This document shows positions 9,229 through 57,773 of a stretch of 64,000 nt of DNA, piece after piece. The DNA lies in NCBI GenBank assembly GCA_016192685.1, contig JACPTS010000003.1, positions 15,119 to 79,118 of the forward strand, written 5' to 3'. The notes under the pieces were generated by a model. That model was not told the origin of the DNA, searched no databases, and saw nothing but the letters and a program-made list of their open reading frames with translations. This DNA comes from Candidatus Harrisonbacteria bacterium (GTDB lineage: Bacteria > Patescibacteriota > Minisyncoccia > UBA6257 > 02-FULL-45-10c). Position 1 is the first letter of the stretch, and each line of letters begins with the position of its first letter. The position numbers were made by a program, and so were the translations under genes.

Positions 9229-9236
9229 TATTATAC

Positions 9237-9268
9237 TATACCCCTTATTCGTACGAATAAGGGGTATA
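9237..9268. repeat. 32-bp perfect palindrome TATACCCCTTATTCGTACGAATAAGGGGTATA (copy 2 of 2)
   Basis: Identical to the core at 6349-6380. Again lies just after a terminator and about 52 bp before a start codon (htpX). Both downstream leaders share CAGGATATG. Confidence 0.8.
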
Positions 9269-9320
9269 AGAAGAATTACCTTTTTATTTTTTAAAAAATC
9301 TATTATAATTTAAGCAGGAT

Positions 9321-10748: not shown

Positions 10749-10777
10749 GTCAACATTTTTTATCGAGAGACCTATTT

Positions 10778-10936: not shown

Positions 10937-11222
10937 ATATAAATATTAAAAAAAATAATTGAAGAATATGATTTATCTAAAACTGATGAAGGAATCATAA
11001 AAGAGTCAGCTACTGGAAATACAGCGGGCATAAATCAATCCCGCGTTATAACAGAATTAATTCTTGGAAAAAAGATAGAGAAAGCAGCAAATAAAATAAT
11101 AAAATCTAATCAATTTCATTTATGGGCAATGATTGCATTGACGGCCGGCCTCTTTTTTGTAGGTTTCGTTACAATGATAATTCAATTAATACAATCTGGG
11201 TGGAATCCTTTTAGATAAAAAC

Positions 11223-23093: not shown

Positions 23094-23123
23094 GATTTTG
23101 ATATAAGCCCTATTGGCCCAATT

Positions 23124-23141
23124 AGTCCTCTAGGTCCTATA
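23124..23141. repeat. TAGGTCCTA-type 9-bp motif cluster upstream of rpsJ (AGTCCTCTAGGTCCTATA)
   Basis: Member of the recurrent GTCCTA/TAGGAC motif family, about 5 bp before the rpsJ start. Confidence 0.45.
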
Positions 23142-23559: not shown

Positions 23560-23982
23560 ATGGAAAAGGTTTTAGCAACAAAATTAAAAATGACTCAAAT
23601 TTGGAAAGGCGATGCCGTTGCGTCAGTCTCACCATTGAAATTGGCTGAAAGCGCCAAAATAGAAGAATTTAAAGAAGGGGACTTAGTGAAGGTGAGCGGC
23701 GTAACCAAAGGCCATGGTTTTCAGGGCGTTGTAAAAAGATATAGTTTTGCCGGCGGACCAAAAACTCACGGCCAGAAAAATCGCTACCGGGCTCCGGGTT
23801 CTATCGGCAATACTTCTCCGCAAAGAGTTGTTCCCGGCCGAAAAATGGCCGGCCGGATGGGAGGAAAGAAAAAAACCATTCGGAATTTAACAGTCATAGC
23901 GATTAATAAGGATCAAGGAACAATTTTAGTTAAAGGATCAGTTCCGGGAAATGCCGGCGGGAAATTAACTATTATTAAATAG
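23560..23982 (+). CDS. rplC: 50S ribosomal protein L3 (short form, 140 aa)
   Basis: Conserved L3 segments (GVTKGHGFQGVVKR, GQKNRYRAPGSIG). Shorter than the canonical protein. Confidence 0.85.
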   Translation: MEKVLATKLKMTQIWKGDAVASVSPLKLAESAKIEEFKEGDLVKVSGVTKGHGFQGVVKRYSFAGGPKTHGQKNRYRAPGSIGNTSPQRVVPGRKMAGRMGGKKKTIRNLTVIAINKDQGTILVKGSVPGNAGGKLTIIK

Positions 23983-23998
23983 GTCCTATAAGACTTAT
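23979..23998. repeat. ATAGGTCCTATAAGACTTAT motif immediately upstream of rplD
   Basis: Member of the recurrent GTCCTA/TAGGAC (TAAGTCCTA-type) motif family, ending 7 bp before the ATG. Confidence 0.5.
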
Positions 23999-24005
23999 AA
24001 AATTT

Positions 24006-24632
24006 ATGGAAAATATTAAAGTTTACAATCAGGATGGCAATGTAACCGGCGAAATGGAAGCGCCGCGATTTTTATCTTCCAAATGGAATGGCGCCTTAAT
24101 CCATCAGGTATTTAAAGCAATCGTCGCGAATAAACGGCATCCGATTGCCCATACTAAGGATCGCAGCGAAGTCAGCGGCGGCGGCATTAAGCCGTGGCGC
24201 CAAAAAGGGACTGGCCGGGCAAGGCAGGGTTCTATCCGTTCGCCGCTTTGGCGGCACGGAGGAATAACTTTTGGCCCGCGGAATACCACGGATTTTTCTC
24301 AAAAAATCAACCGGAAGATGCTGAAAAAGGCGCTTTGGGAAGTTTTAGCTAAAAAATATTCTTTAAATCAGCTGAAAGTAATTAAAGATTTAGAAGTTAA
24401 TCCAAAAACTAAAGAATTAAACCGGATAATAACTAATTTAGTCGGCCAAAAAACTGCCTTATTGGCCGTAAGCAGCGCCAATAAAAATGTTTTCCGGGCG
24501 GCTGGCAACCTTGCCAAAATCAAAGCTCTGCCGATCAAAAATCTAAGCGTTTACGATGTTTTAAATTACCAATATGTTTTGCTGGATCAGGCGGCGCTTA
24601 CGGAATTAACAAATAATTATGCCTCTAAATAA
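24006..24632 (+). CDS. rplD: 50S ribosomal protein L4
   Basis: 208 aa, L4 family, in operon order. Confidence 0.9.
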   Translation: MENIKVYNQDGNVTGEMEAPRFLSSKWNGALIHQVFKAIVANKRHPIAHTKDRSEVSGGGIKPWRQKGTGRARQGSIRSPLWRHGGITFGPRNTTDFSQKINRKMLKKALWEVLAKKYSLNQLKVIKDLEVNPKTKELNRIITNLVGQKTALLAVSSANKNVFRAAGNLAKIKALPIKNLSVYDVLNYQYVLLDQAALTELTNNYASK

Positions 24633-29998: not shown

Positions 29999-30006
29999 CT
30001 TTTAAA

Positions 30007-30041
30007 TAAGTCCTGTAAGACCTATAGGACTAATAAGACTT
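30007..30041. repeat. tandem 9-bp motif array TAAGTCCTG-TAAGACCTA-TAGGACTAA-TAAGACTT abutting the rpsH ATG
   Basis: Member of the GTCCTA/TAGGAC motif family, ending at the start codon. Confidence 0.55.
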
Positions 30042-30422
30042 ATGTATTACGATCTATTAACCAAAATTAAAAACGCTCAAGCAGTTAAAAAAGAAAGTAT
30101 TAAAATTCCTTATACTAATATGGATTTTGCTATTGCCGAAATTCTTGCTAAACATAAATTCGTGGAAGAAGTTTTCAAAAAGGGGAGAATGCCCAAAAGA
30201 GTTTTGGATATAAAACTCAAATATCAAAACGGCCAAGGAAAAATCCTGGGAATTAAATTGCTTAGCAAACCGTCCAGAAAATTATTTGCCGGCTATAAAG
30301 ATATTAAACCGGTTCGGCAGGGGTATGGCTTGCTGGTTCTGTCTACTCCTAAAGGAATTATGGATGGCAAAAACGCCAAAAAAGAAAAAGTCGGCGGGCA
30401 ATTACTATTTGAAATCTGGTAA
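30042..30422 (+). CDS. rpsH: 30S ribosomal protein S8
   Basis: 126 aa, S8. Confidence 0.9.
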   Translation: MYYDLLTKIKNAQAVKKESIKIPYTNMDFAIAEILAKHKFVEEVFKKGRMPKRVLDIKLKYQNGQGKILGIKLLSKPSRKLFAGYKDIKPVRQGYGLLVLSTPKGIMDGKNAKKEKVGGQLLFEIW

Positions 30423-30423
30423 C

Positions 30424-30984
30424 ATGTCTAAAATAGGGAAAAAACCAATAGAAATCCCGGCAGGGGTAAATATAGAAATTAAAGATTCCCGCCTGGAAAT
30501 TAAGGGCAAGGAAGGAGCCTTATCTTTGTCAGTTTTACCATATACCAAAGTTGAATTAAAAAACAATCAAGTTTTGGTAATGGCGGAAGCTGACGAAAAA
30601 CAAGCCCGTTCTAATTGGGGAACAATGCGGGCGCTGGCCCAAAATGCCGTTCTCGGAGTCAGCGGCGGTTTTACTAAAGAATTAGAGATTCAAGGCATTG
30701 GCTATCGGGCGGCCGCCGAAGGCGCTAATTTAGTTTTGAATATCGGCTTTTCTCATCCGGTGAAATTTACGCCGCCAGCAGGAATAAAAATCAGCGTGGA
30801 AAAAAATCTTATTAAAGTTTCCGGGGTGGATAAAAATTTAGTCGGCGAAGTGGCGGCTAAAATCAGAGCTTTAAAAAAACCAGAGCCTTATAAAGGAAAG
30901 GGTATCAGGTATAAAGGCGAAGTAGTCAAAATTAAAGCCGGCAAAAAAGCAGTGAGCACAGCCGGCGCCGGAGCAGCGGCTTAA
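30424..30984 (+). CDS. rplF: 50S ribosomal protein L6
   Basis: Start MSKIGKKPIEIPAGV. The track ORF begins earlier inside rpsH. Confidence 0.9.
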   Translation: MSKIGKKPIEIPAGVNIEIKDSRLEIKGKEGALSLSVLPYTKVELKNNQVLVMAEADEKQARSNWGTMRALAQNAVLGVSGGFTKELEIQGIGYRAAAEGANLVLNIGFSHPVKFTPPAGIKISVEKNLIKVSGVDKNLVGEVAAKIRALKKPEPYKGKGIRYKGEVVKIKAGKKAVSTAGAGAAA

Positions 30985-30994
30985 AATTAAACTT

Positions 30995-31010
30995 GTAGGA
31001 CTTAAGACTT
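30995..31010. repeat. GTAGGACTTAAGACTT motif abutting the rplR ATG
   Basis: Partial member of the TAGGAC/TAAGACTT motif family. Confidence 0.4.
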
Positions 31011-31367
31011 ATGAAAAATATTAAATTAAAAAATCTACAAAAAAAGCGGAGGAAGAGCCGCAATCGGGCAAAAATTTTTGGGACGCCGGAGAAGCCCCGC
31101 CTTTCGGTTTTTAGAAGTAATCGCTATACCAGCATCCAATTAATTGATGATACAACCGGCAGAACTTTATTGGCGCTTTCCACTAAAAATCTGAAAAAAC
31201 AAGGAAAAAATAAATCAGAGCAGGCCAACCTTTTAGGGAAAGAGCTGGCGGAAAAATCCCTCCAACTCGGACTTAAAAAAGCAGTATTCAATAAAGGTCA
31301 ATATAAATATCTTGGTCGGATTAAAGCGATTGCCGAAGGGGCGCGCTCTAAAGGATTAATTTTATGA
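31011..31367 (+). CDS. rplR: 50S ribosomal protein L18
   Basis: 118 aa, L18. Confidence 0.9.
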   Translation: MKNIKLKNLQKKRRKSRNRAKIFGTPEKPRLSVFRSNRYTSIQLIDDTTGRTLLALSTKNLKKQGKNKSEQANLLGKELAEKSLQLGLKKAVFNKGQYKYLGRIKAIAEGARSKGLIL

Positions 31368-31882
31368 ACGAAAACAAACCATTTCAAACAAGAAATAGAA
31401 ACCCGCGTTCCAATCGGCCGAGAAGACAAGATTCGGAATTCCGAAAAGATCCCTACAAAGATAAAGTACTGGACTTGCGTAGAGTTACCCGGGTAGTTGC
31501 CGGAGGCAAAAGATTCCGTTTTCGGGTAACCGTGGTTATTGGCGATGAAAATGGCACGGTAGGCGTGGGAGTTGCCAAAGGACTGGATGTCCAAACATCG
31601 GTGGAAAAGGCCAAAAGAGCGGCTAAAAGCAATATTCTAAAAATTCCGCTGAAGGGCAGGACTATTCCCCATGAAGTAATGGCTAAATTCAGCGCTGCTA
31701 AAGTAATTATCCGCCCGGCAGTTCCGGGCCATGGATTAAAAGCCGGCGGCGCGGTGCGGATAGTTTTATCGCTGGCCGGAGTTAAAGATGCGACAGCAAA
31801 ATGCCTCGGCCGGACGCCGAATAAATTAACTAATGCCCTGGCAACAATGAAAGCTTTGGCTCAGTTAAAAGCTAAAAATTAA
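31364..31882 (+). CDS. rpsE: 30S ribosomal protein S5
   Basis: dsRBD-like and S5 C-terminal domains. ATGA overlap with rplR. Confidence 0.95.
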   Translation: MNENKPFQTRNRNPRSNRPRRQDSEFRKDPYKDKVLDLRRVTRVVAGGKRFRFRVTVVIGDENGTVGVGVAKGLDVQTSVEKAKRAAKSNILKIPLKGRTIPHEVMAKFSAAKVIIRPAVPGHGLKAGGAVRIVLSLAGVKDATAKCLGRTPNKLTNALATMKALAQLKAKN

Positions 31883-31889
31883 AAGTTTT

Positions 31890-32276
31890 ATGGAATTATT
31901 TCACGGCTTAAAAAATAAAAAAGCTAAAAGGATTGCCCGCGGAGGCAAAAGAGGAACTACTGCCGGAAGAGGCACTAAAGGACAGAAATCCCGAGCCGGA
32001 CACCGGATTCGCCCGGCGGAACGGGATCTTTTAATCCGCCTCCCGAAACTTCGCGGCTATAAAAATAAACCTATTTCAAAAAAAATGAGGGCTGTTAATA
32101 TAGGCGATTTAGAAAAAATGGCGGAAAAAGAATTCAGTAAAAATAATTTAGGGCTGGTAAAAATCCTCGGGAAAGGAAAGTTAGCCAAAGCGGTTACCAT
32201 ACAAGGATTGCCGGTTTCAAAAAACGCCAAACTAAAAATTGAGAAAGCCGGCGGCCAAGTAAATAATAAAAAATAA
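31890..32276 (+). CDS. rplO: 50S ribosomal protein L15 (no L30 gene between rpsE and rplO)
   Basis: G/R-rich N-terminus typical of L15. L30 (rpmD) is absent. Confidence 0.85.
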   Translation: MELFHGLKNKKAKRIARGGKRGTTAGRGTKGQKSRAGHRIRPAERDLLIRLPKLRGYKNKPISKKMRAVNIGDLEKMAEKEFSKNNLGLVKILGKGKLAKAVTIQGLPVSKNAKLKIEKAGGQVNNKK

Positions 32277-32280
32277 ATTA

Positions 32281-33543
32281 ATGGATAAATTCCTGCAATT
32301 ATTTCAAATTCCCGATTTAAAGAAAAAACTGCTGGTTATTCTGGGCTTATTGCTGGTTTTCCGGTTATTTTCCGCTATCCCCATACCAAGCGTGGATACG
32401 GAAAGGCTGGCGGCCTTTTTAAGCCAGAATCAATTGCTGGGATTTTTTAACATTTTTTCCGGCGGGGCTTTATCCAATCTTTCCATAGTAATGCTGGGAG
32501 TCGGGCCTTACATCACGGCTACCATTATTCTCCAGCTTTTAACCATGATTTTCCCGCAGCTGAAAGAAATTTATTACGAACAGGGAGAAATCGGCCGGGC
32601 AAAATTTAACCGCCTGTCTCATTATTTAACCGTTCCGCTGGCGGCTTTGCAATCATACGGATTTTTAAACCTGTTAGTCGCCCAGCAAGTTTTGGTGAAT
32701 TTATCCTTTTTTGATATTTTAAGGAATATCACCTTAGTTACCGCCGGCTCCTTATTTTTAGTCTGGTTAGCTGACTTAATTTCGGAACAAAAGCTGGGTA
32801 ATGGCGTATCGCTTTTAATTTTTGCCGGTATTGTCAGCGGATTGCCGCAAACTATCCAAGGCGTAATCGTAACTTATGAGCCAAGTTTGCTTCCAACTTA
32901 CGCCGCTTTCTTAATTTTGGCCATGATTGTGATTGCCGGAGTAGTATTCATTAACGAGGGCGAGAGAAAAATTCCGGTTTCTTACGCAAAACGAGTCCGC
33001 GGCAACCGAGTTTACGGAGGCGCTTCCAGTTATCTGCCGCTGAAAGTCAATCAAGCCGGAGTAATTCCGATTATTTTTGCCATCTCTCTTCTGCTTTTTC
33101 CGCAATTTTTAGCCCAAATTTCCGGATTTATCTCCGTAGATTTATCCATCCGTTTAACTGAATTAGTCAACAAACTTTTAAATAATCAGCTGATTTACAG
33201 CGCCTTTTATTTCTTTTTAGTAGTTTTATTCACTTATTTTTATACCGCTGTTACTTTTGACCCGCAGGAAATTTCTAAAAATTTGCAGCGGAGCGGCGCT
33301 TTTGTTCCGGGCATTCGGCCCGGCCAGCCGACCGGCGAATTTTTAAACAAAATTATAAATAGAACTACGATTTGGGGAGCTTTATTTTTGGGGACAATCG
33401 CGGTTCTGCCCAATCTTACCCAGATTTTAACCGGTATCCAGCTTTTAAGCCTTGGCGGCACCGCGCTTTTAATCGTGGTTTCCGTGGCAATAGAAATCAT
33501 GCGGCATATTGAATCGCAGTTGGTGCTTCGCGAATACGAGTAG
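32281..33543 (+). CDS. secY: preprotein translocase subunit SecY
   Basis: 420 aa, 10 TM helices, conserved SecY segments. Confidence 0.95.
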   Translation: MDKFLQLFQIPDLKKKLLVILGLLLVFRLFSAIPIPSVDTERLAAFLSQNQLLGFFNIFSGGALSNLSIVMLGVGPYITATIILQLLTMIFPQLKEIYYEQGEIGRAKFNRLSHYLTVPLAALQSYGFLNLLVAQQVLVNLSFFDILRNITLVTAGSLFLVWLADLISEQKLGNGVSLLIFAGIVSGLPQTIQGVIVTYEPSLLPTYAAFLILAMIVIAGVVFINEGERKIPVSYAKRVRGNRVYGGASSYLPLKVNQAGVIPIIFAISLLLFPQFLAQISGFISVDLSIRLTELVNKLLNNQLIYSAFYFFLVVLFTYFYTAVTFDPQEISKNLQRSGAFVPGIRPGQPTGEFLNKIINRTTIWGALFLGTIAVLPNLTQILTGIQLLSLGGTALLIVVSVAIEIMRHIESQLVLREYE

Positions 33544-33565
33544 CCGCTCAACTATTTTTCCAAAA

Positions 33566-33816
33566 CGGTTCGGTATACTTCTATGAGAACCGCGGTTCTC
33601 GCGCTCCAGCGGCGCGAGCCCGCTACGCCTCGCCGCGATTTTTGTTTTGCTTCGCCAAGTCTGACTTGGCTTCGCAAAACAAACCAAGCAAATCGCGGCT
33701 CCGTAGTTTCTCTACGAAGCATACCGAACCATTTTGTTTTGATAAAAATAGCTTCGCTTGGTTGGGAGAATATTTTAAAATTTGTAGTTACCGCACGACA
33801 AATAGGCATAGCTCAC
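33566..33816. repeat. R1-family GC-rich nested-palindrome element, copy 1 (between secY and adk)
   Basis: Outer inverted repeats GGTTCGGTATaCTTCtaTGAG / CTCtaCGAAGcATACCGAACC, inner pair CTACGCCTCGCCGCGATTT / AAATCGCGGCTCCGTAG, and a central hairpin TTTGTTTTGCTTCGCCAAGTC-tga-CTTGGCTTCGCAAAACAAA. The core and the tail CCGCACGACAAATAGGCATAGCTCAC recur at 35412-35558. Confidence 0.7.
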
Positions 33817-33874
33817 TTCACTGGATTTTTAAAATAGATATAGCTCGCTTTTGTTGTGATATAATTCTTTCTAT

Positions 33875-34558
33875 ATGAGAAAGGTAATAATAATCTACGG
33901 GCCGCCGGGAGCCGGCAAGGGGACGCAAGCGAATTTGTTGGCTGGCAAGCTGGGGTTAATCCATTTTGACACCGGAAAATACCTGGAACAGCTGCTGCAC
34001 GATTCCGAACTTCAAAAAAACCCGGAGATTAAAAAAGCAAGAAAAATTTTTGATTCCGGCGCTTTGGTAACGCCAAGTTTTGTTTTAAAAGTTACTTCTA
34101 AAAAAACCAGAGAAATTGCCAAAGCCGGCTGGGGCATAGTTTTTAGCGGTTCGCCTCGGACCCTTTTTGAAGCTTTCGGCGATTCAAAAAATGAGGGTTT
34201 AATTCCAGCTTTTGAAAAATTGTACGGCAAAAAAAATATAGTGCCGATTTTGCTGAAAATAGACCCTAAAATTTCAATTTTGCGGAACGCTCACCGCCTG
34301 GTTTGCTCAGTTTGCGGAACAGCCATTTTATACAGCGATACGGAACATCAGCATAAAACCTGCCCTCTTTGCGGCGGAAAATTATACAAGCGAGTGGTAG
34401 ATAATCCTAAGGTTTTTGGAACAAGAATTAAGGAATATCAGGAACGGACCGCGCCGATTTTAGCCGGACTTAAAAAACGCGGCTATAAAATTACGGAAGT
34501 AGACGGCCGGCCGCTTCCCTACAAAGTTTTTGACTCAATTCTGAAGAAATTAAAATAA
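33875..34558 (+). CDS. adk: adenylate kinase (zinc-binding lid)
   Basis: GPPGAGKGTQ P-loop and a lid CxxC ... CxxC (CSVCG ... CPLCG). Confidence 0.9.
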   Translation: MRKVIIIYGPPGAGKGTQANLLAGKLGLIHFDTGKYLEQLLHDSELQKNPEIKKARKIFDSGALVTPSFVLKVTSKKTREIAKAGWGIVFSGSPRTLFEAFGDSKNEGLIPAFEKLYGKKNIVPILLKIDPKISILRNAHRLVCSVCGTAILYSDTEHQHKTCPLCGGKLYKRVVDNPKVFGTRIKEYQERTAPILAGLKKRGYKITEVDGRPLPYKVFDSILKKLK

Positions 34559-34659
34559 TACGAATTTACAAATTTATGCGAATGCTGCGAAAAATACGAA
34601 TTCGTTGTATTTGTAGATTAGCATTTATTCGTAGATTTGTATTATATTAGCGTAAGCGC
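34556..34659. repeat. R2-family about 104-bp palindromic element, copy A (exactly fills the adk stop to map start gap)
   Basis: About 90% identical to 36547-36651. Contains subterminal inverted repeats AATCTACAAAT / ATTTGTAGATT and a central palindrome TACGAATTCGT. It begins at the upstream TAA and ends at the downstream ATG. Confidence 0.75.
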
Positions 34660-35412
34660 ATGATAAAGACCGAAGACCAAATCAAAATGATTCGGATTGC
34701 CGGCAAAATCCTGGCCAATGTGGCAATCAAAATCAAAGAAGCGGCCAAGGAGGGCGTTTCCTTAAAAGCATTAGACCAGCTGGCTAAACGATTAATTGAA
34801 GAAGCCGGCGCCGAGCCGGCCTTTTTGGGTTATCAGCCGTATGGCGCGGAAAAGCCGTTTCCCGCCTCTATTTGCGCTTCTTTAAATGAAGTGGTGGTGC
34901 ATGGCGTTCCGACTGATTATAAGCTCAAATCCGGCGATTTATTAAAGCTGGATTTTGGAGTCGCTTATCAGGGCTTTATTGCTGACGGCGCTTTCACGGC
35001 AGGCGTTGGTAAAATATCAGAAACCGCTAGCCGGTTAATTGGAGTTACTAAGCATGCCCTTCAAATAGGAATAAAAGAATGCAAACCAAATAAAACTTTA
35101 GGCGATATCGGCTGGGCAATTAATAATTATGTTACTAAACACAGCTTTAAAGTAGTTAAGGGACTTTCCGGCCATGGCGTTGGCCTGGAACTCCACGAAG
35201 ACCCGCCGGTTTTTAATGAAGGGCAAAAAAATACCGGATTAAAATTAAAGCCGGGAATGGTGCTTGCATTGGAACCGATGGTCAGCGCCGGCGACCCGTA
35301 TCTTTTACAGTTGCCAGACGACAGCTACGCCACCCGCGATAAAAGCTTAACTGCCCATTTTGAGCATACAGTGTTGATTACGAAAGGGGAGCCGGAAATA
35401 TTGACTCGGTAG
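34660..35412 (+). CDS. map: methionine aminopeptidase type I
   Basis: 250 aa, pita-bread fold with conserved metal-ligand context. Confidence 0.9.
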   Translation: MIKTEDQIKMIRIAGKILANVAIKIKEAAKEGVSLKALDQLAKRLIEEAGAEPAFLGYQPYGAEKPFPASICASLNEVVVHGVPTDYKLKSGDLLKLDFGVAYQGFIADGAFTAGVGKISETASRLIGVTKHALQIGIKECKPNKTLGDIGWAINNYVTKHSFKVVKGLSGHGVGLELHEDPPVFNEGQKNTGLKLKPGMVLALEPMVSAGDPYLLQLPDDSYATRDKSLTAHFEHTVLITKGEPEILTR

Positions 35413-35558
35413 CTCACTATGCTTATTTGTCTACCGGCACCGGCGTTCGCCGACTCCTGCGGTCGGCGCCGCCTACGCCTCGCCGCGATTTTTCGCTTCG
35501 CAAAACCAAGCAAATCGCGGCTCCGTAGTTGCCGTACGACAAACAAGTATAGTTCGCT
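35412..35558. repeat. R1-family GC-rich element, copy 2 (after map; lacks the central hairpin)
   Basis: Shares CTACGCCTCGCCGCGATTTTT, GCTTCGCAAAACCAAGCAAATCGCGGCTCCGTAGTT and the tail CCGTACGACAAACAAGTATAGTTCGC with copy 1. Its own outer inverted repeats are GCTCACTATGCTTATTTGTC / GACAAACAAGTATAGTTCGC. Confidence 0.7.
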
Positions 35559-35570
35559 TATTTTTGGAAT

Positions 35571-35599
35571 TGATTAGTTTTTGTTTTATTGCTATACTA
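35571..35599 (+). promoter_or_regulatory. promoter (TTGATT, 17-bp spacer, TATACT) for a small membrane protein gene
   Basis: Hexamers and spacing read directly from the sequence. Confidence 0.4.
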
Positions 35600-35629
35600 A
35601 TATCAGTACAAAAATACTCGGGGATAAAA

Positions 35630-35773
35630 ATGACAGCCTGGCTTGCCTGGAAAGGAATATTGGCAATATTCGCATTTGTAAATTTTTATTTTGCCTATAA
35701 ATTTAATGATAGTTGGAGAGTATTTCATATTGGTTCCGGACTATTGTGTGTCTATATTTTATTCTCTTGGTGA
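35630..35773 (+). CDS. small hydrophobic protein (47 aa)
   Basis: Internal ATG of the track ORF 35564-35773. Hydrophobic sequence MTAWLAWKGILAIFAFVNFYFAYKF... with its own promoter and a perfect 18-bp palindromic terminator. Confidence 0.35.
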   Translation: MTAWLAWKGILAIFAFVNFYFAYKFNDSWRVFHIGSGLLCVYILFSW

Positions 35774-35796
35774 GACGCTAATTAGCGTCTTTTTTG
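35773..35796 (+). terminator. intrinsic terminator (AGACGCTAAT|TAGCGTCT + T5)
   Basis: Perfect 18-bp palindrome plus a T-run. Confidence 0.6.
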
Positions 35797-35817
35797 TTAT
35801 ACTAAATAAGTAATATC

Positions 35818-36549
35818 ATGGCCAGACCATTTCTATCAGTAATTATTCCAGCCTATAACGAATCTAAGCGGTTGCCGCTGACGCTTATTGATATTGACAA
35901 GCATTTGGAACAGCAGGAATATTCTTACGAAATTTTAGTTGTGAATGACGGCTCTGCAGACCAAACGGCAGAAATTGTAAATCGTTTTATGCCGCTGATT
36001 GAAAATCTAAAAATTATTGATAATAAAGAAAATAAAGGCAAAGGCGCGGCGGTTCGGCAGGGAATGCTCCTTGCCAAAGGCACTTGGCGGCTTTTTATGG
36101 ACGCGGATAATTCCACTTCCATCGTAGAATTTAATAAAATGATTCCTTATTTTAAAGAAGGGTATGAAGTAGTAATCGGCTCTCGTGATGTAAGGGGCGC
36201 CCGGATGCTTCCGCCGCAGGCGTTTTATAAACGCTGGCTGGGTGATATTGGCAATTTATTCATTCAAGCCCTGTTATTGCCCGGAATCTGGGATACCCAG
36301 TGTGGCTTTAAATGTTTTTCCGATGAGGCGGCGGAACGGATATTTCATCTGACAAAAATTGACCGCTGGGGCTTTGACGCCGAAGCATTGGCATTAGCTA
36401 AAGCATTAAACTATCAAATAAAAGAAATGCCGGTATTTTGGGTAAACGATCCCAGAACTCATGTATCCTGGAAAACTTATTTGCAAGTTCTCTGGGAAAC
36501 TGTTAAAGTGCGATGGTGGCTTTGGCAAAATGCCTACGGTATTAAATAA
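35818..36549 (+). CDS. GT2-family glycosyltransferase (polyprenol-phosphate glycosyltransferase-like)
   Basis: LSVIIPAYNES ... VVNDGSAD ... DAD motifs of GT-A fold GT2 enzymes. 243 aa. Confidence 0.7.
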   Translation: MARPFLSVIIPAYNESKRLPLTLIDIDKHLEQQEYSYEILVVNDGSADQTAEIVNRFMPLIENLKIIDNKENKGKGAAVRQGMLLAKGTWRLFMDADNSTSIVEFNKMIPYFKEGYEVVIGSRDVRGARMLPPQAFYKRWLGDIGNLFIQALLLPGIWDTQCGFKCFSDEAAERIFHLTKIDRWGFDAEALALAKALNYQIKEMPVFWVNDPRTHVSWKTYLQVLWETVKVRWWLWQNAYGIK

Positions 36550-36651
36550 TACGAATCTACAAATTTATGCGAATGCTACGGAAAATACGAATTCGTTGTA
36601 TTTGTAGATTAGCATTTATTCGTTGATTAGTATTACACCGAGCGTAAGCGT
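36547..36651. repeat. R2-family about 104-bp palindromic element, copy B (fills the GT2 stop to greA start gap)
   Basis: See copy A. Again spans exactly from the TAA to the next ATG. Confidence 0.75.
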
Positions 36652-37110
36652 ATGGACAAACAATATCTCACTAAAGAACGTTTAGAAGAATTAAAAACAG
36701 AACTCGCGGATTTAAAAGTCCGGCGGCGAATTGAAGTTGGAGAAAGGTTAAAAAAAGCCAAAGAACTCGGCGACCTTTCGGAAAATTCCGAATATTTTGA
36801 GGCCAGGGAAGAACAGGCGCAGGTGGAAACCCGGATTGGCGAATTGGAAGATATGATTAAAAATTCGGAAATTATTGAAAAAACTCGGGCCGGAGCGACA
36901 GTCTCCATCGGCGCCACTATTCAAGCGGAAAAAGACGGCCAACGGAGAAAATTTACGATTGTCGGCTCTAATGAGGCTAAACCGGAAGAGGGCCTGATTT
37001 CCAATGAATCGCCGTTAGGAAGAGCTTTTTTGGGTAAAAAAGCCGGCGATAAAGTGCAGGTCAAAACTCCCGGCGGAATAGCGGAATATCTGGTGATTTC
37101 AATCGAATAA
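36652..37110 (+). CDS. greA: transcription elongation factor GreA
   Basis: 152 aa. N-terminal coiled coil with acidic tip (DLSENSEY) and C-terminal FKBP-like domain. Confidence 0.9.
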   Translation: MDKQYLTKERLEELKTELADLKVRRRIEVGERLKKAKELGDLSENSEYFEAREEQAQVETRIGELEDMIKNSEIIEKTRAGATVSIGATIQAEKDGQRRKFTIVGSNEAKPEEGLISNESPLGRAFLGKKAGDKVQVKTPGGIAEYLVISIE

Positions 37111-37114
37111 TCAA

Positions 37115-38503
37115 ATGCTTGAGGACATCATTCAAGAACGTAAAAAAAAGAAAGAAAATCTGATTAGGGCGGGATATAATGTTTATCCAAGCAGAGTAGA
37201 AAAGGATTATCAAATCAGTGACGTTCTTCGTCGCTTTTTCTTTTTATCTTTATTGAAAAGAAAAGTTTCTTTGGCCGGAAGAATCATCGGGATGCGAATT
37301 CAGGGCGGAGTAATCTTTTTAGACTTAAAAGATGCCGGCGGTAAAATTCAGGCGATTTTAAATAAAAAACAAGTAAAGGATTTTGAATTATTAAAAGAGA
37401 ATCTGGATTTAGGAGATTTTGTTTCCGTTATCGGAACCCTTTTTAAAACTAAAAAAGGGGAGCGGAGCGTCCGGGTAAAAAATTTAACGCTGGCCGCGAA
37501 AAGCCTCCGGCCGATTCCGTCAGAATGGTATGGCTTAAAAGACATTGAAGAGCGCTACCGGAAAAGATACCTGGATTTAATCTTAAATCAAGAAGTAAAA
37601 GAAAAATTAGTTTCCCGTTCCAAAATTGTCCGAACTTTAAGAAATATCCTGGAAAAAGACGGATTTTTAGAGGTAGAAACCCCGATGCTTCAGCCGCTAG
37701 CCGGCGGCGCTACTGCCCGTCCTTTTAAAACGCATCACAATGCCTTGGATACTGATTTCTATCTTAGAATCGCGCCGGAGCTTTATTTAAAACGCCTTTT
37801 AGTCGGCGGTTTTGAAAAGATATTTGAAATCGGCCGGAATTTCCGCAATGAAGGAATGGACCGCGACCATAATCCGGAATTTACCATGCTGGAGCTTTAT
37901 TGGGCTTATCAGAATTATCAAGGCCTGATGCGCGAACTTCAAAAATGGCTTACTTTGCTGATTAAAGAACTTAAAACCGAAACGATTAGCCATAACGGAG
38001 AAAAAATTTCTTTGCTGGCAAAATGGCAGACCATTACTTATGAAGAGGCGATTAAAAAATACAGCGGGAAAAATTGGAAGGATTTAAATGCGGAAGAAAT
38101 AGATGAAGTTTTTAAAAAAACCGTCCGCCCGAATTTAATCCAGCCGACTTTTGTCATTCGTTATCCAAAAGCCATTTCACCGCTCGCTAAATCCTGCCCG
38201 GATAATCCGGAACTAACCGAGCGATTCCAATTAATAGTCGCCGGCACGGAATTAGTTAATGGCTTTTCGGAATTAAACGACCCGGAAGATCAGCGCCAAC
38301 GAATGGAAGAGCAGGAGAAAATGCATCGCGCCGGCAATGAAGAAGCTTCGCGCTTAGACGAAGATTTTTTGGAAGCCCTAGAATACGGCATGCCTCCAGC
38401 CGCCGGTTTAGGAATCGGCATTGACCGCTTAGCCGCGCTTTTAACCGATACTCAATCGGTAAAAGACATCATTATTTTTCCGACCTTGCGCCCAAAGCAT
38501 TAA
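37115..38503 (+). CDS. lysS: lysyl-tRNA synthetase (class II)
   Basis: OB anticodon-binding domain plus class II motifs (FRNEGMDRDHNPEFT, GGLGIGIDR). Confidence 0.92.
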   Translation: MLEDIIQERKKKKENLIRAGYNVYPSRVEKDYQISDVLRRFFFLSLLKRKVSLAGRIIGMRIQGGVIFLDLKDAGGKIQAILNKKQVKDFELLKENLDLGDFVSVIGTLFKTKKGERSVRVKNLTLAAKSLRPIPSEWYGLKDIEERYRKRYLDLILNQEVKEKLVSRSKIVRTLRNILEKDGFLEVETPMLQPLAGGATARPFKTHHNALDTDFYLRIAPELYLKRLLVGGFEKIFEIGRNFRNEGMDRDHNPEFTMLELYWAYQNYQGLMRELQKWLTLLIKELKTETISHNGEKISLLAKWQTITYEEAIKKYSGKNWKDLNAEEIDEVFKKTVRPNLIQPTFVIRYPKAISPLAKSCPDNPELTERFQLIVAGTELVNGFSELNDPEDQRQRMEEQEKMHRAGNEEASRLDEDFLEALEYGMPPAAGLGIGIDRLAALLTDTQSVKDIIIFPTLRPKH

Positions 38504-38548
38504 TTTGGTATAATAAATTTAGTCCAGAAAAAATTTTAAGCTGGAAAA

Positions 38549-38860
38549 ATGGGAAAGGAAGGGAAGCCTTCGGAAAGGAATCTCCGCCTCAAAATGCTAT
38601 TAGAGATTAAAAGAGACGTAACGCTTTTAATCTTCACTGCCAATTATAACGATGACCCGACAAAGATTAAGCTGAAAAAAGGCACGAAAGTAACTCTTTT
38701 AGACGATAATCCGTCAATTTGCGCCACTACCGAACGGCTGGCAACCGGTCCCAGCGTTAAAATTGAAGAAACAAAAGGCGTTGAAGTAGAAGAAAGATTT
38801 ATCGGAAAAGAAGTTACGGTTCCCGCTCAATGCCTAAGAATTCACCCCCAAGAATTATAG
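38549..38860 (+). CDS. hypothetical protein (103 aa)
   Basis: ORF. An R3 element and then a terminator follow its stop. Confidence 0.4.
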   Translation: MGKEGKPSERNLRLKMLLEIKRDVTLLIFTANYNDDPTKIKLKKGTKVTLLDDNPSICATTERLATGPSVKIEETKGVEVEERFIGKEVTVPAQCLRIHPQEL

Positions 38861-38861
38861 G

Positions 38862-39128
38862 AGCGCGGAATACGAACAGAATCAATTTAGCGGAGCTAAT
38901 TTGAGCCAGATTCAAGGCGCGAGGAGGAAATCGTAGCTTAAGCTACCTTTCCGACGAGCAACGCAGAATATGGACAAAATCGCTCCGCCCTTCGGGAAGC
39001 TCAAAAATGGCTGATTTCTTTGTTGCTCCTCCTCAAGGTATCTAAAGATACACTTTCGTCGTCGCGCCTAGAAATCATCTCATTTTTGAGCTTCTAAATT
39101 CTGATTCATGTTCGTATCCCGCGCTCCT
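38862..39128. mobile_element. R3-family structured palindromic element (about 267 bp), copy 2, in the 3' region of the preceding ORF
   Basis: Terminal inverted repeats GGAGCGCGGAATACGAACAGAATCAATTTAG / CTAAATTCTGATTCATGTTCGTATCCCGCGCTCC. Inner inverted arms GGCGCGAGGAGGAAA / TTTCGTCGTCGCGCC. Central CCCTTCGGGA at 38998-39007. Shares ordered sub-motifs (CAAGGCGCGA, GAGCAACG, CCCTTCGGGA, CTCCTC) with the element at 27847-28112. Confidence 0.65.
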
Positions 39129-39153
39129 AACTCCGGCATTGCCGGAGTTTTTC
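39129..39153 (+). terminator. intrinsic terminator (AACTCCGGC-att-GCCGGAGTT + T3)
   Basis: Perfect 9-bp stem. Confidence 0.55.
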
Positions 39154-39180
39154 TATTGAGCTAATTAAGGTATAATCCTA

Positions 39181-40440
39181 ATGGTATATACTCTTACTAT
39201 GCTGGATGTTAACTTAATCCGTAAAAATCCAAACGAAGTCAGAACGGGCTTAAAAGCAAAAAACGCCGACCCGGAATTAGTGGACAAATTTTTAGAGCTG
39301 GATGAAAAGTGGCGGAATTTGAATAAAAAATTTGACGATTTACGGACAGAACAAAAAAAGCTGGGCAAAGAATCAAGAGAGAAAGCCGGGGAGATTAAAG
39401 CCGAATTAAAAAAGATAGAAGCGGATTTAAACGATTTAGACAAAATGCGGCAGGAAATTTTACATCAAATGCCCAACCTACCCCTGCCTTCAGTGCCGCT
39501 CGGCAAAGACGAAACTGAAAATAAAGTATTAAGGGAAGCCGGCGAAAAGCCAAAATTAAAAAAATTTAAAGATTATTTGACGCTAGCCGCGGAATTGGAT
39601 TTAATAGACGTGGAACGGGCCAGCAAAATTTCCGGCAGCCGGTTTGGCTATCTTAAAGGCCCGGCAGCGCTTTTAGAATTCGCTTTAGTGCGGTTAGCTA
39701 TGGATACGGCAATGAAAAATGGCTTTATTCCGGTTGTCCCGCCAGTTTTAATAAACGAAAAAGCAATGTGGGGCATGGGTTATCTGGAGCGCGGCCGCGA
39801 TGAAATTTATTATCTGCCGGCAGATAACCTTTATTTAGCCGGAACTTCAGAACAAGCGATCGGACCGATGCATATGGATGAAGTTTTTCAACCGGCGGAA
39901 TTACCCAAACGCTACGTTGCCTTTTCCAGTTGTTTTCGCCGGGAAGCCGGTTCTTACGGAAAAGACACCAAAGGCATCTTGCGGGTGCATCAATTTGATA
40001 AAGTGGAAATGTTCAGTTTTACCAAGCCGGAAAATTCAGGGCAAGAACATGAATTACTGCTTTCCATAGAAGAAGAATTAATGCAAAAGCTGGAATTGCC
40101 CTATCGGGTGGTCAATATTTGTTCCGGGGATTTAGGCGATCCGGCAGCGGCTAAATATGATATTGAAGTCTGGCTTCCCGGCCAAAATAACGGAAAAGGC
40201 GAATATCGGGAAACCCATTCTACGTCCAACACTACTGATTTTCAATCCCGCCGCTTGAACATTAAATACAAAAATTCCGATGGAAAATTAGAGTTCGTTC
40301 ACATGCTCAATGGCACGGCTTTTGCCATCGGCCGGATGATTATCGCGATTTTAGAAAATTATCAAACTGAAGAAGGAACAATTAAAATCCCAAAGGCGCT
40401 TCAAGAATACTTAAATTGCAAAGAAATTAAAATGCCCTAA
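39181..40440 (+). CDS. serS: seryl-tRNA synthetase
   Basis: N-terminal coiled coil and class II core (FSSCFRREAGSYG, RVHQFDKVE). TATAAT lies 7 bp upstream, so the mRNA may be leaderless. Confidence 0.95.
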   Translation: MVYTLTMLDVNLIRKNPNEVRTGLKAKNADPELVDKFLELDEKWRNLNKKFDDLRTEQKKLGKESREKAGEIKAELKKIEADLNDLDKMRQEILHQMPNLPLPSVPLGKDETENKVLREAGEKPKLKKFKDYLTLAAELDLIDVERASKISGSRFGYLKGPAALLEFALVRLAMDTAMKNGFIPVVPPVLINEKAMWGMGYLERGRDEIYYLPADNLYLAGTSEQAIGPMHMDEVFQPAELPKRYVAFSSCFRREAGSYGKDTKGILRVHQFDKVEMFSFTKPENSGQEHELLLSIEEELMQKLELPYRVVNICSGDLGDPAAAKYDIEVWLPGQNNGKGEYRETHSTSNTTDFQSRRLNIKYKNSDGKLEFVHMLNGTAFAIGRMIIAILENYQTEEGTIKIPKALQEYLNCKEIKMP

Positions 40441-48323: not shown

Positions 48324-49814
48324 TTATAAATAAATTATTTTAGCGCCCCCAGGAACTTCCTCAAGTTTCTCAGAAGAAATATAATAGATATTTTTTTCCT
48401 TTCGTTTTTTATCGGTAAAAGTATCGGTGAGAAAAAGGATTGTTTGGAGCGAAATCGGATTGTCGCGTTCAATTTTATCTTTTACATCGCTAACCACTAT
48501 ATATTTCGGCGTTTCTTTCGGCAAAGAATTTAAATATTGGGCAATTATTGAATCATTATAGGCAAAGGCGGGTTTTACATTAGAATTCTGGCCCCAAGTG
48601 ATGAAATAAGTTACGTAAGATTCAAACAGCAACAAACTACAAAATACATAGACAACAACTGACAACAAGCAACTACTTAATTTTGGTTTTAGAAATTCGT
48701 AAATTTTTAGACCTCCAATTGCGGCTAAAATAAAAACTGGCGGCACCGCAAGCAGAGAACGAAGCGCATGCGGCAGGCCTTCGTTAGAAACTACCACCGG
48801 AATTAAAGCGATGAAAAGCCAGATGAATAAAATTACAAATGGTAATTTTGGGAAGTCCGACCTCCTAGAATTATTATTTTCAATATTTGGGAGGTCAGAC
48901 TTCCTTAATATTGATTTAGCGCCTGAAATAATTCCGACTAAAAAGAAAATTCCGACCGGCCAGAAAAGCAGGGGGCGGCCGGCAACATTATGACGCCAGT
49001 TAAAATCGCCGAATACATTGAACATCCCTGTGGTTTTTAAAATATTAAGACCAAGATCACGAACCGGAGTTTCGGAATTAAAAATAGAAATGCTGGAAGT
49101 ACGTCCAAGAAAATCTTGAGGGTGGTTATAAAAATAAATTCCAAACGGCGCAATAGTAACAATAGCAGCAATCGCAAAAAACAAAAAAACTATTCTAATA
49201 TTCTTAAGAACATTAGAATAGTTTTTAAAATAGAAATAAACAATAAAAATTATAAGCAGGGGGGTGACGCGATAGGCGATATAAGAATGAAATCCGAGAC
49301 CATAGGTTAATCCTGCCAGAATTGACAAAAAATAAGACCAATAGGACTTATAAGATTTATATGAGAGTAATAGAAAATATAACGCCCAAATCAGGAAAAA
49401 CGGCGCCATGATGGCCCGAAAACCGATGCGGGAAAAATTAATGTGCCAAAAACTCGTAGCAAGCAAAAATGACGCTAAAAGCGCCATTTTTTTATCCGCA
49501 AAGAGTTCTTTAGTAAAAAGATATAACCCCCAAACCGTTAAAATGCCGAAAATGGCGCTCGGGAGCCTTAAAACCCAAGGTTCGTTGCCAAAAGCCGCTA
49601 TAAACAAACTTTGAATATTGATAAATAAGCCTTCCCTACCATGGTTTTCCGGATAAAAAACTTTCCAATCCCGATTTTCCCATGCCTCAACCGCGTTATT
49701 GCCGTTCATCGCTTCATCCGGATAAAGCCCCGGCGGTAATTCAGTGAAATTGTGAAGCCGCAGAAAGGAAGCTATAATTAGGATAATAACTAATAACCAA
49801 AGTTTTTTAAACAT
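48324..49814 (-). CDS. GT-C fold glycosyltransferase, ArnT/PMT-like (second paralog)
   Basis: LYPDEAMNGNNA loop-1 DE motif. 496 aa, multi-TM. Confidence 0.6.
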   Translation of the reverse strand: MFKKLWLLVIILIIASFLRLHNFTELPPGLYPDEAMNGNNAVEAWENRDWKVFYPENHGREGLFINIQSLFIAAFGNEPWVLRLPSAIFGILTVWGLYLFTKELFADKKMALLASFLLATSFWHINFSRIGFRAIMAPFFLIWALYFLLLSYKSYKSYWSYFLSILAGLTYGLGFHSYIAYRVTPLLIIFIVYFYFKNYSNVLKNIRIVFLFFAIAAIVTIAPFGIYFYNHPQDFLGRTSSISIFNSETPVRDLGLNILKTTGMFNVFGDFNWRHNVAGRPLLFWPVGIFFLVGIISGAKSILRKSDLPNIENNNSRRSDFPKLPFVILFIWLFIALIPVVVSNEGLPHALRSLLAVPPVFILAAIGGLKIYEFLKPKLSSCLLSVVVYVFCSLLLFESYVTYFITWGQNSNVKPAFAYNDSIIAQYLNSLPKETPKYIVVSDVKDKIERDNPISLQTILFLTDTFTDKKRKEKNIYYISSEKLEEVPGGAKIIYL

Positions 49815-56342: not shown

Positions 56343-57765
56343 TAAATTAATCAAATTAATAAGTCCTATAAGTCCTATAGGACCTATTCGGGTCAGAATC
56401 GCGCCATCGCCGACCGGCTATTTGCATATTGGGACGGCCCGAACCGCTCTTTTTAACTGGCTTTTTGCCAAAAAACACGGCGGCAAATTTATTTTAAGAA
56501 TAGAAGACACTGACCTGGAAAGATCCGATAAAAAATACGAAAAAGACATTATAGATGGCTTGAGGTGGCTGGGATTGGATTGGGATGAAGGACCCCATCG
56601 GCAATCGGAACGATTAGCCATTTATGAAAAATATCTTCAAAACCTCCTAAGCGAAAACCAGGCTTACTATTGCGCCTGCACCAAGGAAACTTTGGAAAAA
56701 GAGCGGCAGCTTCAAATAAAGAAAGGGGAGGCGCCAAAATACAGCGGCAGATGCCGAAATTTTAAAATTGCTCCGGAACAGGGAGAAATTATCCGTTTTA
56801 AAATTCCGCCGGCGGAGAAAATCCAATTTCTGGATTTGATTCGCGGCCCGATTATTTTTGACAGCAGCTTAATCGGGGATTTGGCTATCGCCAAAAACTT
56901 ACAAACCCCTCTTTATAACTTCGCGGTTGTTATTGACGATTACGAAATGAAAATCAGCCACGTAATCCGCGGCGAAGACCACATTGCCAATACGCCCAAA
57001 CAGATTTTGCTCCAGCGAGCCCTAAACTTTCCGGAGCCAAAATACGCCCATCTGCCGCTGATTTTAGACCCGGACCGGAGCAAAATGTCCAAACGCTATT
57101 CGGCTACTTCCATCCAAGAATATAAAGAGCGAGGTTATTTGCCGGAAACTTTAGTAAATTTTATTGCTTTGCTTGGCTGGCATCCGGCCGATGACCAGGA
57201 AAAAATGGCGGCGTCGGAAATTATCCGAAAATTCAGCCTGGAAAGAATCCAAAAGGCCGGGGCGGTTTTTGACATCCAAAAACTCAACTGGCTGAACAGC
57301 CAATATTTAAAGGAAAAATCCGAATCCGAACTGTGGCAAAAAATAAAAGAGCTTTACGATAAAAAAATCAGTATTCAAAACGAGGCGGCTCTAAAATTAT
57401 TAAAAATAGGAAAATTGAGAATGTCAAAACTGGAAGATTTTCTTTCTTTGCAGGAATCTTTAACCTTACCGGATTATGACAGCAATTTATTATCTTGGAA
57501 AAATACTCATAAAGAAACAACTAAAGAAGCCTTGCGGCTGGCGCAAGAAGTAACCAGAACCATTCTCGTCCACGAATTTAATCAAAAAAATCTGGAAAAC
57601 CAACTTATGCCCCTAGCGGACAACCAAGGAAGGGGAGAGTTCCTGTGGCCTCTGCGAGTAGCCTTATCCGGAAAAGATAAATCACCCGGGCCATTTGAGC
57701 TGATGGAAGTATTGGGAAAAGAAGAATCGTTAAGAAGAATAAATATTGCTATTGAAAAATTATAA
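56335..57765 (+). CDS. gltX: glutamyl-tRNA synthetase
   Basis: RIAPSPTGYLHIG (HIGH) and KMSKR. The first about 17 codons are encoded by the tandem TAAGTCCTA repeat array, so the start is uncertain. Confidence 0.88.
   Translation: MFSKLIKLISPISPIGPIRVRIAPSPTGYLHIGTARTALFNWLFAKKHGGKFILRIEDTDLERSDKKYEKDIIDGLRWLGLDWDEGPHRQSERLAIYEKYLQNLLSENQAYYCACTKETLEKERQLQIKKGEAPKYSGRCRNFKIAPEQGEIIRFKIPPAEKIQFLDLIRGPIIFDSSLIGDLAIAKNLQTPLYNFAVVIDDYEMKISHVIRGEDHIANTPKQILLQRALNFPEPKYAHLPLILDPDRSKMSKRYSATSIQEYKERGYLPETLVNFIALLGWHPADDQEKMAASEIIRKFSLERIQKAGAVFDIQKLNWLNSQYLKEKSESELWQKIKELYDKKISIQNEAALKLLKIGKLRMSKLEDFLSLQESLTLPDYDSNLLSWKNTHKETTKEALRLAQEVTRTILVHEFNQKNLENQLMPLADNQGRGEFLWPLRVALSGKDKSPGPFELMEVLGKEESLRRINIAIEKL
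56360..56387. repeat. tandem 9-bp array TAAGTCCTA-TAAGTCCTA-TAGGACCTA containing the palindrome GTCCTATAGGAC (56372-56383)
   Basis: Perfect 12-bp palindrome within a 3-unit tandem repeat at the gltX 5' end. Confidence 0.7.
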
Positions 57766-57773
57766 ACTAAATT

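Follow-up and report, generated by a model that had tools for sequence, protein, structure and literature searches.

Within a 64,000-nt stretch of a Candidatus Harrisonbacteria bacterium genome (contig JACPTS010000003.1, positions 15,119 to 79,118; referred to here as the window), the gene junctions adk|map and GT2|greA are each filled, from the stop codon of the upstream gene to the start codon of the downstream gene, by a palindromic element of 104-105 bp designated R2, which raises the question of what this element is and how it came to occupy both gaps. Comparison with other contigs, denoted here by L numbers, shows that R2 is an insertion with presence/absence polymorphism that spreads to unrelated junctions without an open reading frame (ORF). 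On balance, R2 is probably a tolerated, selfish element resembling a miniature inverted-repeat transposable element (MITE), a form without an ORF within a class of hairpin cassettes that insert at gene junctions, rather than a dedicated regulator.

Copy 1 (34556-34659) opens with the TAA of adk at 34556-34558 and ends immediately 5' of the map ATG at 34660; copy 2 (36547-36651) opens with the TAA of GT2 at 36547-36549 and ends immediately 5' of the greA ATG at 36652. The two share 98 of 108 aligned positions from TAA to ATG (90.7%) and 95% identity over 92 nt (blastn within the window, E ~3e-35), and neither an nhmmer profile nor sensitive blastn detected a third copy in the 64 kb. Each consists of an 89-nt imperfect palindromic core (TAATAC...GTATTA) followed by an unpaired tail of 15-16 nt that is G+C-rich and atypical for this genome. 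The arms of the core are not simple inverted repeats; each is built from two tandem 18-nt units, themselves composed of TAC(G/A)AAT-type 7-mers, and Tandem Repeats Finder reports one arm of copy 2 as a two-copy repeat of period 18 at 36599-36634. The parts are located as follows.

34556-34644, + strand: core of copy 1 (89 nt), its first three bases being the adk stop codon
34556-34573 and 34574-34591: left-arm 18-nt units of copy 1
34595-34605: centre of copy 1, TACGAATTCGT
34609-34626 and 34627-34644: right-arm 18-nt units of copy 1
34645-34659, + strand: tail of copy 1, TATTAGCGTAAGCGC, reaching the map ATG at 34660-34662
36547-36635, + strand: core of copy 2 (89 nt), 94% identical to the core of copy 1 and starting with the GT2 stop codon
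36547-36564, 36565-36582, 36600-36617 and 36618-36635: 18-nt units of copy 2
36586-36596: centre of copy 2, TACGAATTCGT
36636-36651, + strand: tail of copy 2, CACCGAGCGTAAGCGT, reaching the greA ATG at 36652-36654
34563-34573 and 36554-36564: motif AAT(T/C)TACAAAT
34609-34619 and 36600-36610: motif ATTTGTAGATT
34649-34658 and 36641-36650: motif AGCGTAAGCG

A start for map upstream of 34660 is excluded because an in-frame TAG lies at 34648-34650, and the same stop, together with the shortness of the element, excludes an ORF within R2. Each copy folds as a single long hairpin with a stem of 32-34 pairs, the minimum free energy (MFE) of the + strand being -32.1 kcal/mol for copy 1 (z -4.4) and -24.4 kcal/mol for copy 2 (z -1.8). 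The core is only 74-80% identical to its own reverse complement and so has a definite polarity. The first-pass annotation of this DNA, which described two copies about 90% identical that occupy these two gaps and contain inverted repeats and a central palindrome, agrees with these coordinates and identities, and the motifs it named were located in both copies. Its proposal that the element itself provides the stop-to-start gap was likewise borne out: the tail abuts the ATG and the upstream stop codon is supplied by the element, even in contig L003, where a 1-nt difference causes adk to read six codons into the element and to end at a TGA.

The genes on either side of the two copies, all identified by Pfam, belong to a row that also contains SecY and a class II (Lys/Asp/Asn-type) aminoacyl-tRNA synthetase.

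33875-34558, + strand: adk, adenylate kinase (ADK), whose TAA stop is the first triplet of copy 1
34660-35412, + strand: map, type I methionine aminopeptidase (Peptidase_M24), directly 3' of copy 1
35818-36549, + strand: GT2, family-2 glycosyltransferase (Glycos_transf_2), whose TAA stop is the first triplet of copy 2
36652-37110, + strand: greA (GreA_GreB), directly 3' of copy 2

The map protein of the window is 100% identical to one annotated from a metagenome-assembled 'Candidatus Harrisonbacteria bacterium' genome. This row was compared among contigs encoding map homologues 79-90% identical to that of the window. The adk|map junction is empty in five lineages whose map is 79-87% identical to the window gene, the two genes overlapping by ATGA in L007 and by GTGA in L130, L132 and L133 and being separated by 1 nt in L135, and GT2|greA is empty in L130, L132 and L135, with a spacer of 3-19 nt. 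Both junctions are filled in the window and in a strain whose map is 90% identical (L003-L006, L001), and GT2|greA is also filled in L133, although adk|map is empty there. The order secY-adk-map-GT2-greA-lysS is kept in every relative examined, with or without the element. Since this order is conserved and the empty junctions are tight, the R2 copies are insertions and not rearrangement scars. Judged from these alleles, the ancestral adk|map junction is a 4-nt overlap and the ancestral GT2|greA junction a spacer of a few nucleotides, and the gene order is older than, and independent of, the elements. The filled and empty alleles reveal no unambiguous target-site duplication, adk|map fitting an insertion inside the ATGA overlap with a repeat of at most 1 nt.

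The search for further copies used an exact 22-mer from the R2 centre. It had no match in the contigs of GTDB species representatives, so that this subfamily is absent from that set, while a scan of metagenome contigs recovered one syntenic contig and a contig, L002, carrying two more copies. Together with one in another species of Harrisonbacteria, the additional junctions are these.

L002, 99-187: preceded by an intrinsic terminator and followed by an extended -10-like box, the box lying 7 nt 5' of the next ATG
L002, 3672-3756: between a 97-aa ORF and a 105-aa ORF
L081 (another Harrisonbacteria species): 5' of an ORF with an SSB-like N-terminus, with TAA at the start of the element and TATTAAGCGTAGGCGT-ATG at its end

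Copies from different loci are 94-98% identical, compared with a self-complementarity of 74-80%, and share a common centre; R2 has therefore spread as ORF-less units. These copies also bear on the idea that the two elements in the window were left behind by a local segmental duplication, or by the rearrangement that brought GT2-greA to its place after map. In favour of it, the copies are just 1991 nt apart and the stretch that they flank is non-canonical by comparison with model bacteria, but the flanking genes are not duplicated, copies occur in other contigs and species at junctions of unrelated genes, and element-free relatives have the same gene order, which refutes this explanation. The suggestion in the first-pass annotation that the repeats mark rearrangement junctions is thus contradicted by the shared gene order, including that of L007, L130, L132, L133 and L135, which have no element at adk|map. 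The same annotation had considered that there might be only two copies derived from one segmental duplication, a possibility removed by the copies at junctions with unrelated flanking genes.

The core occurs in two subtypes, A and B; when A is inverted, it is 84-89% identical to B. The window carries type A and L003 type B at adk|map, and at GT2|greA type A is found in the window and L003 and type B in L133. The element at L002 99-187 has a type A core in reverse orientation to the downstream gene, although this core is 97-98% identical to the window copies. The tail behaves differently: it lies against the downstream ATG at five independent junctions in the lineage, and in L002 the tails follow the local gene direction on both strands.

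Elements of related build were sought over the GTDB species representatives with the self-complementary anchor AATCTACAAAT-N20-45-ATTTGTAGATT, which matched at least 119 loci against a chance expectation estimated at 1-50, depending on G+C content. At least 71 of these loci are labelled Patescibacteria, and the labelled lineages among the matches listed are Falkow-, Moran-, Uhr-, Sacchari-, Lipton-, Kaiser-, Buchanan-, Kuenen- and Harrisonbacteria and the Parcubacteria group. All matches listed are palindromes made of rows of 7-11-nt modules, one arm being a row of short direct modules and the other the inverse row, with ends that are lineage-specific. With crude gene calls (the longest ORF, of at least 80 aa), 98 sites could be scored, comprising 73 co-directional, 18 divergent and 7 convergent junctions, against 445, 100 and 114 background gaps, respectively, so that convergent gaps are depleted of class elements (binomial p = 0.003). 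Once the element is subtracted, a residual spacer of 10 nt or less remains at 12 of the 73 co-directional sites, compared with 0.5% expected for length-proportional insertion (p = 4e-15). Such near-zero residual spacers recur across sites, and stop-to-start gap filling is therefore a general property of the class and not a peculiarity of the window. This distribution places the class at gene junctions, with an association to the starts of genes and not to their ends. An initial view of R2 as a selfish element that targets stop codons consequently holds in one half, as the empty sites and further junctions attest to dispersed insertion, but is too narrow in the other, the association being with starts. 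Members of the class are also found inside rows of ribosomal-protein genes (L031). In L003, two 72-nt palindromes of a different module family, CGTAG/CTACG (3356-3427 and 3797-3868), flank rplN at S17|L14 and L14|L24, where the window has spacers of 6 nt and 2 nt. No description of module-built palindromes at gene junctions of the candidate phyla radiation (CPR) was found in full-text literature searches, in which the nearest paper dealt with insertions in CPR rRNA genes (PMC11270868); the class is widespread in CPR and, as far as found, undescribed. The idea that the 11-mer is a DNA uptake sequence was dropped, as in the window it is essentially confined to R2.

An association with gene starts could mean that R2 is a portable outward promoter, the last ~35 nt (TTAGCA-16 nt-TATTAT) driving the downstream gene with a leader of a few nucleotides. 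The + strand of copy 1 does match the promoter consensus at 34618-34645, -10-like boxes lie 2-14 nt from the ATG of other genes in the window, and the scarcity of the class in convergent gaps ties it to gene starts. However, the match reaches 9 of 12 positions at best and is symmetric, equal matches on the - strand (34582-34555 and 36573-36546) pointing into the upstream genes; in copy 2 the -10 hexamer is replaced by TATTAC and the + strand has no match; and the number of promoter-like sites (13, with 7.5 +/- 3.1 expected) is not above that in shuffled sequences. The ATG called in L102 overlaps with the equivalent hexamer, and at L002 99-187 a separate extended -10 box is present 3' of the element. 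A promoter role would appear improbable on these comparisons. The opposite role, that of a transcription terminator or attenuator after adk and GT2, is suggested by a stable hairpin directly 3' of each stop codon, but it is more improbable still: the stem is followed by TATTAGCG or CACCGAGCG rather than by a T-run, a consensus scan listed no terminator-like site at either copy, members of the class lie within ribosomal-protein operons, and the convergent gaps in which terminators would be expected are those depleted of the class.

What might move such elements is suggested by small ORFs flanked by module-built inverted arms of the same design, which belong to three kinds, GxxExxY proteins of the PD-(D/E)XK type, the four-helix-bundle protein of 23S rRNA intervening sequences (IVSs) and GIY-YIG proteins. 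The closest connection is found in L093, a metagenome-assembled genome (MAG) of Falkowbacteria, where a 136-aa ORF lies between arms that are, by eye, ~90-93% identical to those of an ORF-less element located 1.1 kb upstream (609-720). This ORF belongs to the PDDEXK_3 / GxxExxY family (PF13366, Pfam E = 2e-23; also NCBIfam TIGR04256), and, apart from sequences of the window's close relatives, nothing matches the R2 profile better than the ORF-less element (nhmmer E = 2e-11). The secY|adk junction of L003 is filled by a GxxExxY gene (8754-9218; PF13366/TIGR04256) in a cassette with four TACGAAA modules on one side and four inverted TTTCGTA modules on the other, which begins 3 nt past the secY stop and ends 3 nt short of the adk ATG, the ATG of the GxxExxY gene lying inside the third module. 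GxxExxY genes with inverted arms occur at def|fmt in three lineages (L136, L137 and L142), as well as at corA|cysS (L145), between a large ORF and a response-regulator gene (L148), and in L102. In the def|fmt cassettes, gene calling places the start of fmt within the right arm (…TTTCGTATGATTTCG…; L136 1079-1130, L137 5412-5470, L142 5403-5460), which adds about nine arm-encoded residues, and the first conserved fmt codons (AAATTTCGTATT) themselves resemble a module.

When the flanks of genes were scored for inverted repeats, six of the seven GxxExxY genes tested fell within the top 0.2-3% of 908 control genes, and the high-scoring controls were themselves six PF05635 '23S rRNA intervening sequence protein' ORFs and one GIY-YIG ORF, all outside rRNA genes and each flanked by its own inverted arrays of 7-10-nt modules (e.g., CAAGACCAG, CTTTATTG, AATGACGA, GTTCACAG).

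L095 7574-7945, L066 5113-5484, L041 4677-5066, L113 6567-6953, L112 4976-5341 and L076 3227-3628: PF05635 ORFs
L108 5651-5911: GIY-YIG ORF

The D...ExK motif is conserved in an alignment of the GxxExxY proteins, and 'virtual' cassettes from which the ORF had been deleted match R2 with z = 3-10 against shuffles. A genomic context for GxxExxY proteins (or PDDEXK_3) was nowhere described in the papers reached by full-text literature searches; PDDEXK_3 is a family listed as 'function unknown' in a survey of PD-(D/E)XK proteins (PMC3424549), and a scan of viral contigs confirmed no GxxExxY relatives. The preferred reading makes R2 an internally deleted derivative of an ORF-bearing cassette, or a hitch-hiker on one. 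Its repeated modules would then be protein-recognition sites, most likely for a cassette-encoded, GxxExxY-type nuclease acting in trans, and copies would persist at junctions where the supplied stop codon, the abutted start and the folding into a single hairpin keep both neighbours expressed.

The remaining alternative places the function of R2 in RNA. As a functional intercistronic hairpin, its ~40-bp stem might be an RNase III-type processing site, by analogy with the IVSs of 23S rRNA and the rRNA processing stalks, or a bridge between stop and start for termination-reinitiation, either of which would yield a downstream mRNA with a short leader in a largely Shine-Dalgarno-free organism. The geometry is suggestive, the stem opening at the stop codon and closing 15-16 nt before the ATG and the tail facing the downstream start in all cases; most genes of the window lack a Shine-Dalgarno sequence and many have -10-like boxes a few nucleotides from the ATG. 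Class members are moreover situated between ribosomal-protein genes that need to be expressed (L031, L003), and PF05635 ORFs share the arm architecture, rRNA IVSs being cut by RNase III (PMC11270868). Against this, folding energy shows no bias between sense and antisense strands (74 co-directional elements, Wilcoxon p = 0.47), with the R2 copies going either way; RNAalifold found no compensatory pairs among eight R2 copies, a set too uniform to be informative; and Rfam 15 has no match at the elements (E <= 1 over 30000-40000; gathering score for the whole window). The lack of strand bias and of compensatory changes indicates that the palindrome is therefore symmetric at the level of DNA. In addition, the copy at L002 99-187 is probably outside any mRNA, because a terminator precedes it and a promoter-like box follows. 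An RNA role of this kind might exist, but is unlikely. As for the portable leader or RBS considered in the first-pass annotation, the R2 tail has no Shine-Dalgarno sequence, which most genes of the window lack as well.

Several observations weigh against the interpretation of R2 as a tolerated MITE-like insertion. The core is found in either orientation while the tail invariably adjoins the downstream gene, which a simple cut-and-paste MITE would not predict, and this fixed position hints at selection, or a function, tied to the gene start. A target-site duplication is not definable from the filled and empty alleles, and the window holds just two R2 copies in 64 kb. The 18-nt units of R2 itself were not found in any element that bears an ORF, nor does the 64-kb window contain a GxxExxY, IVS-protein or GIY-YIG ORF, and we know of no GxxExxY protein with demonstrated nuclease or transposase activity. 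The breadth of the class also depends on a scan anchored on one 11-mer and on the crude gene calls used in scoring junctions, and 18 of the anchor matches come from third-party-annotation MAGs with the unconfirmed label 'uncultured Gammaproteobacteria' (L019, L026, L028, L036, L037, L040, L046 and 11 more). The elements so labelled resemble those of Falkow- and Moranbacteria, which points to unreliable labels or, alternatively, to a class that extends beyond CPR. The association of the tail with gene starts and the convergent depletion leave room for R2 to have a role in expression of the downstream gene, through processing, coupling or weak promoter activity, and such roles may exist, being ranked here among the rival explanations.

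Non-coding palindromic MITE-like repeats of ~100 bp located in transcribed spacers are familiar from other bacteria, namely ERIC/IRU of enterobacteria, Correia/NEMIS of Neisseria and RUP of the pneumococcus. R2 resembles ERIC, Correia and RUP in being a dispersed, intergenic, non-coding element of ~100 bp that forms an imperfect palindrome over its full length, occurs in either orientation, is present or absent according to strain and can change where the upstream ORF ends. It differs in having no recognisable target-site duplication, in arms that are rows of two 18-nt module units rather than a single terminal inverted repeat, in its asymmetric tail facing the downstream ATG and in its CPR host. 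Its candidate partners are small PD-(D/E)XK, GIY-YIG or four-helix-bundle ORFs, whereas those of ERIC, Correia and RUP are insertion sequence transposases. R2 has in common with MITEs its shortness, lack of coding capacity, inverted-repeat arms, dispersed copies and insertion polymorphism; as to an autonomous partner, the L093 sister family has both an ORF-bearing GxxExxY version and an ORF-less version, though not with R2's own arms.

The REP/REPIN-RAYT system offers a further parallel, that of an intergenic hairpin doublet of ~90-100 nt with GTAG/CTAC presumably mobilized in trans by a single-copy protein. The R2 arms are, however, direct 18-nt units and not paired, self-palindromic REPs, the neighbours of R2 are housekeeping genes, and no Y1 transposase was seen near any R2 copy in a search that was not exhaustive. 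The ORFs of the related cassettes likewise belong to other protein families than the RAYT Y1 transposase (IS200/IS605-like). Free-standing homing endonuclease genes such as seg and mob of phage T4 are comparable to the R2 class in that nuclease-type ORFs are inserted between conserved, co-directional housekeeping genes and that close relatives carry filled and empty alleles, but R2 has no ORF and classical free-standing homing genes have no inverted module arrays. TIGR arrays, which reportedly consist of ~36-nt tandem units beside a Tas (Nop-domain) gene and are said to occur in phages and parasitic bacteria, with CPR mentioned, were considered and rejected, as R2 has only a two-copy, 18-nt period within one arm and its neighbours are adk, map, GT2 and greA. 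Nor was R2 assigned to the intrinsic terminators, REP/REPINs or rRNA IVSs, as it lacks defining features of each.

R2 is like the ERIC/Correia-type MITEs and the REPINs in behaviour, and like the IVSs of 23S and 16S rRNA in architecture. In CPR, rRNA genes are known to have insertions with PF05635 and GIY-YIG ORFs, and rRNA IVSs are cleaved by RNase III (PMC11270868). Like them, R2-class elements are stem-loop insertions of ~100 bp when ORF-less, with an optional PF05635 or GIY-YIG ORF in the loop, a patchy distribution and a host gene product that stays functional. Unlike them, R2 lies between protein-coding genes and not in an rRNA helix, and module-built arms have not been described for rRNA IVSs, as far as found in the literature. 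A tentative and rather doubtful extension of the preferred reading would make R2 the ORF-less form of junction-seeking hairpin cassettes found throughout Patescibacteria, a counterpart of the rRNA IVS in protein operons whose modules are recognized by the cargo protein (GxxExxY, PF05635 or small GIY-YIG) and whose RNA stem is excised or bridged so that the insertion is silent. If this is true, the cassette class would give a biological context to the abundant GxxExxY, PF05635 and small GIY-YIG families and would explain how streamlined CPR genomes tolerate frequent insertions in core operons.

The genomes of CPR/Patescibacteria are small and tightly packed, yet they carry such junction insertions; strains with 90% identical map differ by hairpin-type insertions at five or more junctions of the ribosomal-protein/secY/adk/map row. 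Should the link to the ORFs hold, common uncharacterized small proteins would be the cargo or the engines of a mobile hairpin cassette, and the elements would offer a handle on how operon expression survives insertions in organisms mostly free of Shine-Dalgarno sequences, as well as strain-level markers for uncultured lineages. Gene callers will mis-annotate neighbouring genes, because the elements add stops, extend ORFs and supply starts (adk in L003; fmt in L136, L137 and L142).

The remaining features concern the setting of the two copies. An infA-rpoA cluster was looked for upstream in the window and rejected, Pfam identifying at 9.3-14.6 kb a Peptidase_M48, a PGI-type SIS protein and ORFs without a hit, but no ribosomal or rpoA genes. 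No rRNA gene is present in the window, where Rfam at gathering score gives just two tRNAs. GGAGG-like Shine-Dalgarno sites precede few genes (7774, 45801, 5870) and a TATAAT-like box lies 2-14 nt 5' of the ATG of many (e.g., 14626, 27432, 33875, 39181, 59073), so that mRNAs in this genome are likely to be leaderless or to have very short leaders.

A second, G+C-rich type of hairpin element occupies secY|adk (33544-33874; 331 nt, MFE -109 kcal/mol) and map|GT2 (35413-35563; 151 nt, MFE -64 kcal/mol), the copies being repeats D3 and D7. The map|GT2 junction of L007 has a related element of ~300 bp (10757-11060) that runs the other way. In L003, map|GT2 is a gap of just 20 nt and secY|adk holds the GxxExxY cassette instead of the G+C-rich element. 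Between map and GT2 the window further contains, at 35564-35817, a 69-aa ORF without a Pfam match followed by a terminator-like hairpin (35772-35791), and the map-GT2 stretch of ~400 bp is missing from the 90%-identical strain (L001/L003).

Arrays of a partly self-complementary 9-nt module (TATAAGTCC / TATAGGACC), similar in style to the R2 arms, are found at or beside gene junctions of the window.

1670-1709, 23110-23140, 23977-24007, 30004-30034, 49330-49360, 56348-56387 and 57770-57827: 9-nt module arrays

Finally, a 34-nt perfect palindrome, TATACCCCTTATTCGTACGAATAAGGGGTATA, occurs in two copies (6336-6382 and 9224-9270), each centred on a TACGAAT module as in R2 and each located directly 3' of a hairpin resembling an intrinsic terminator.

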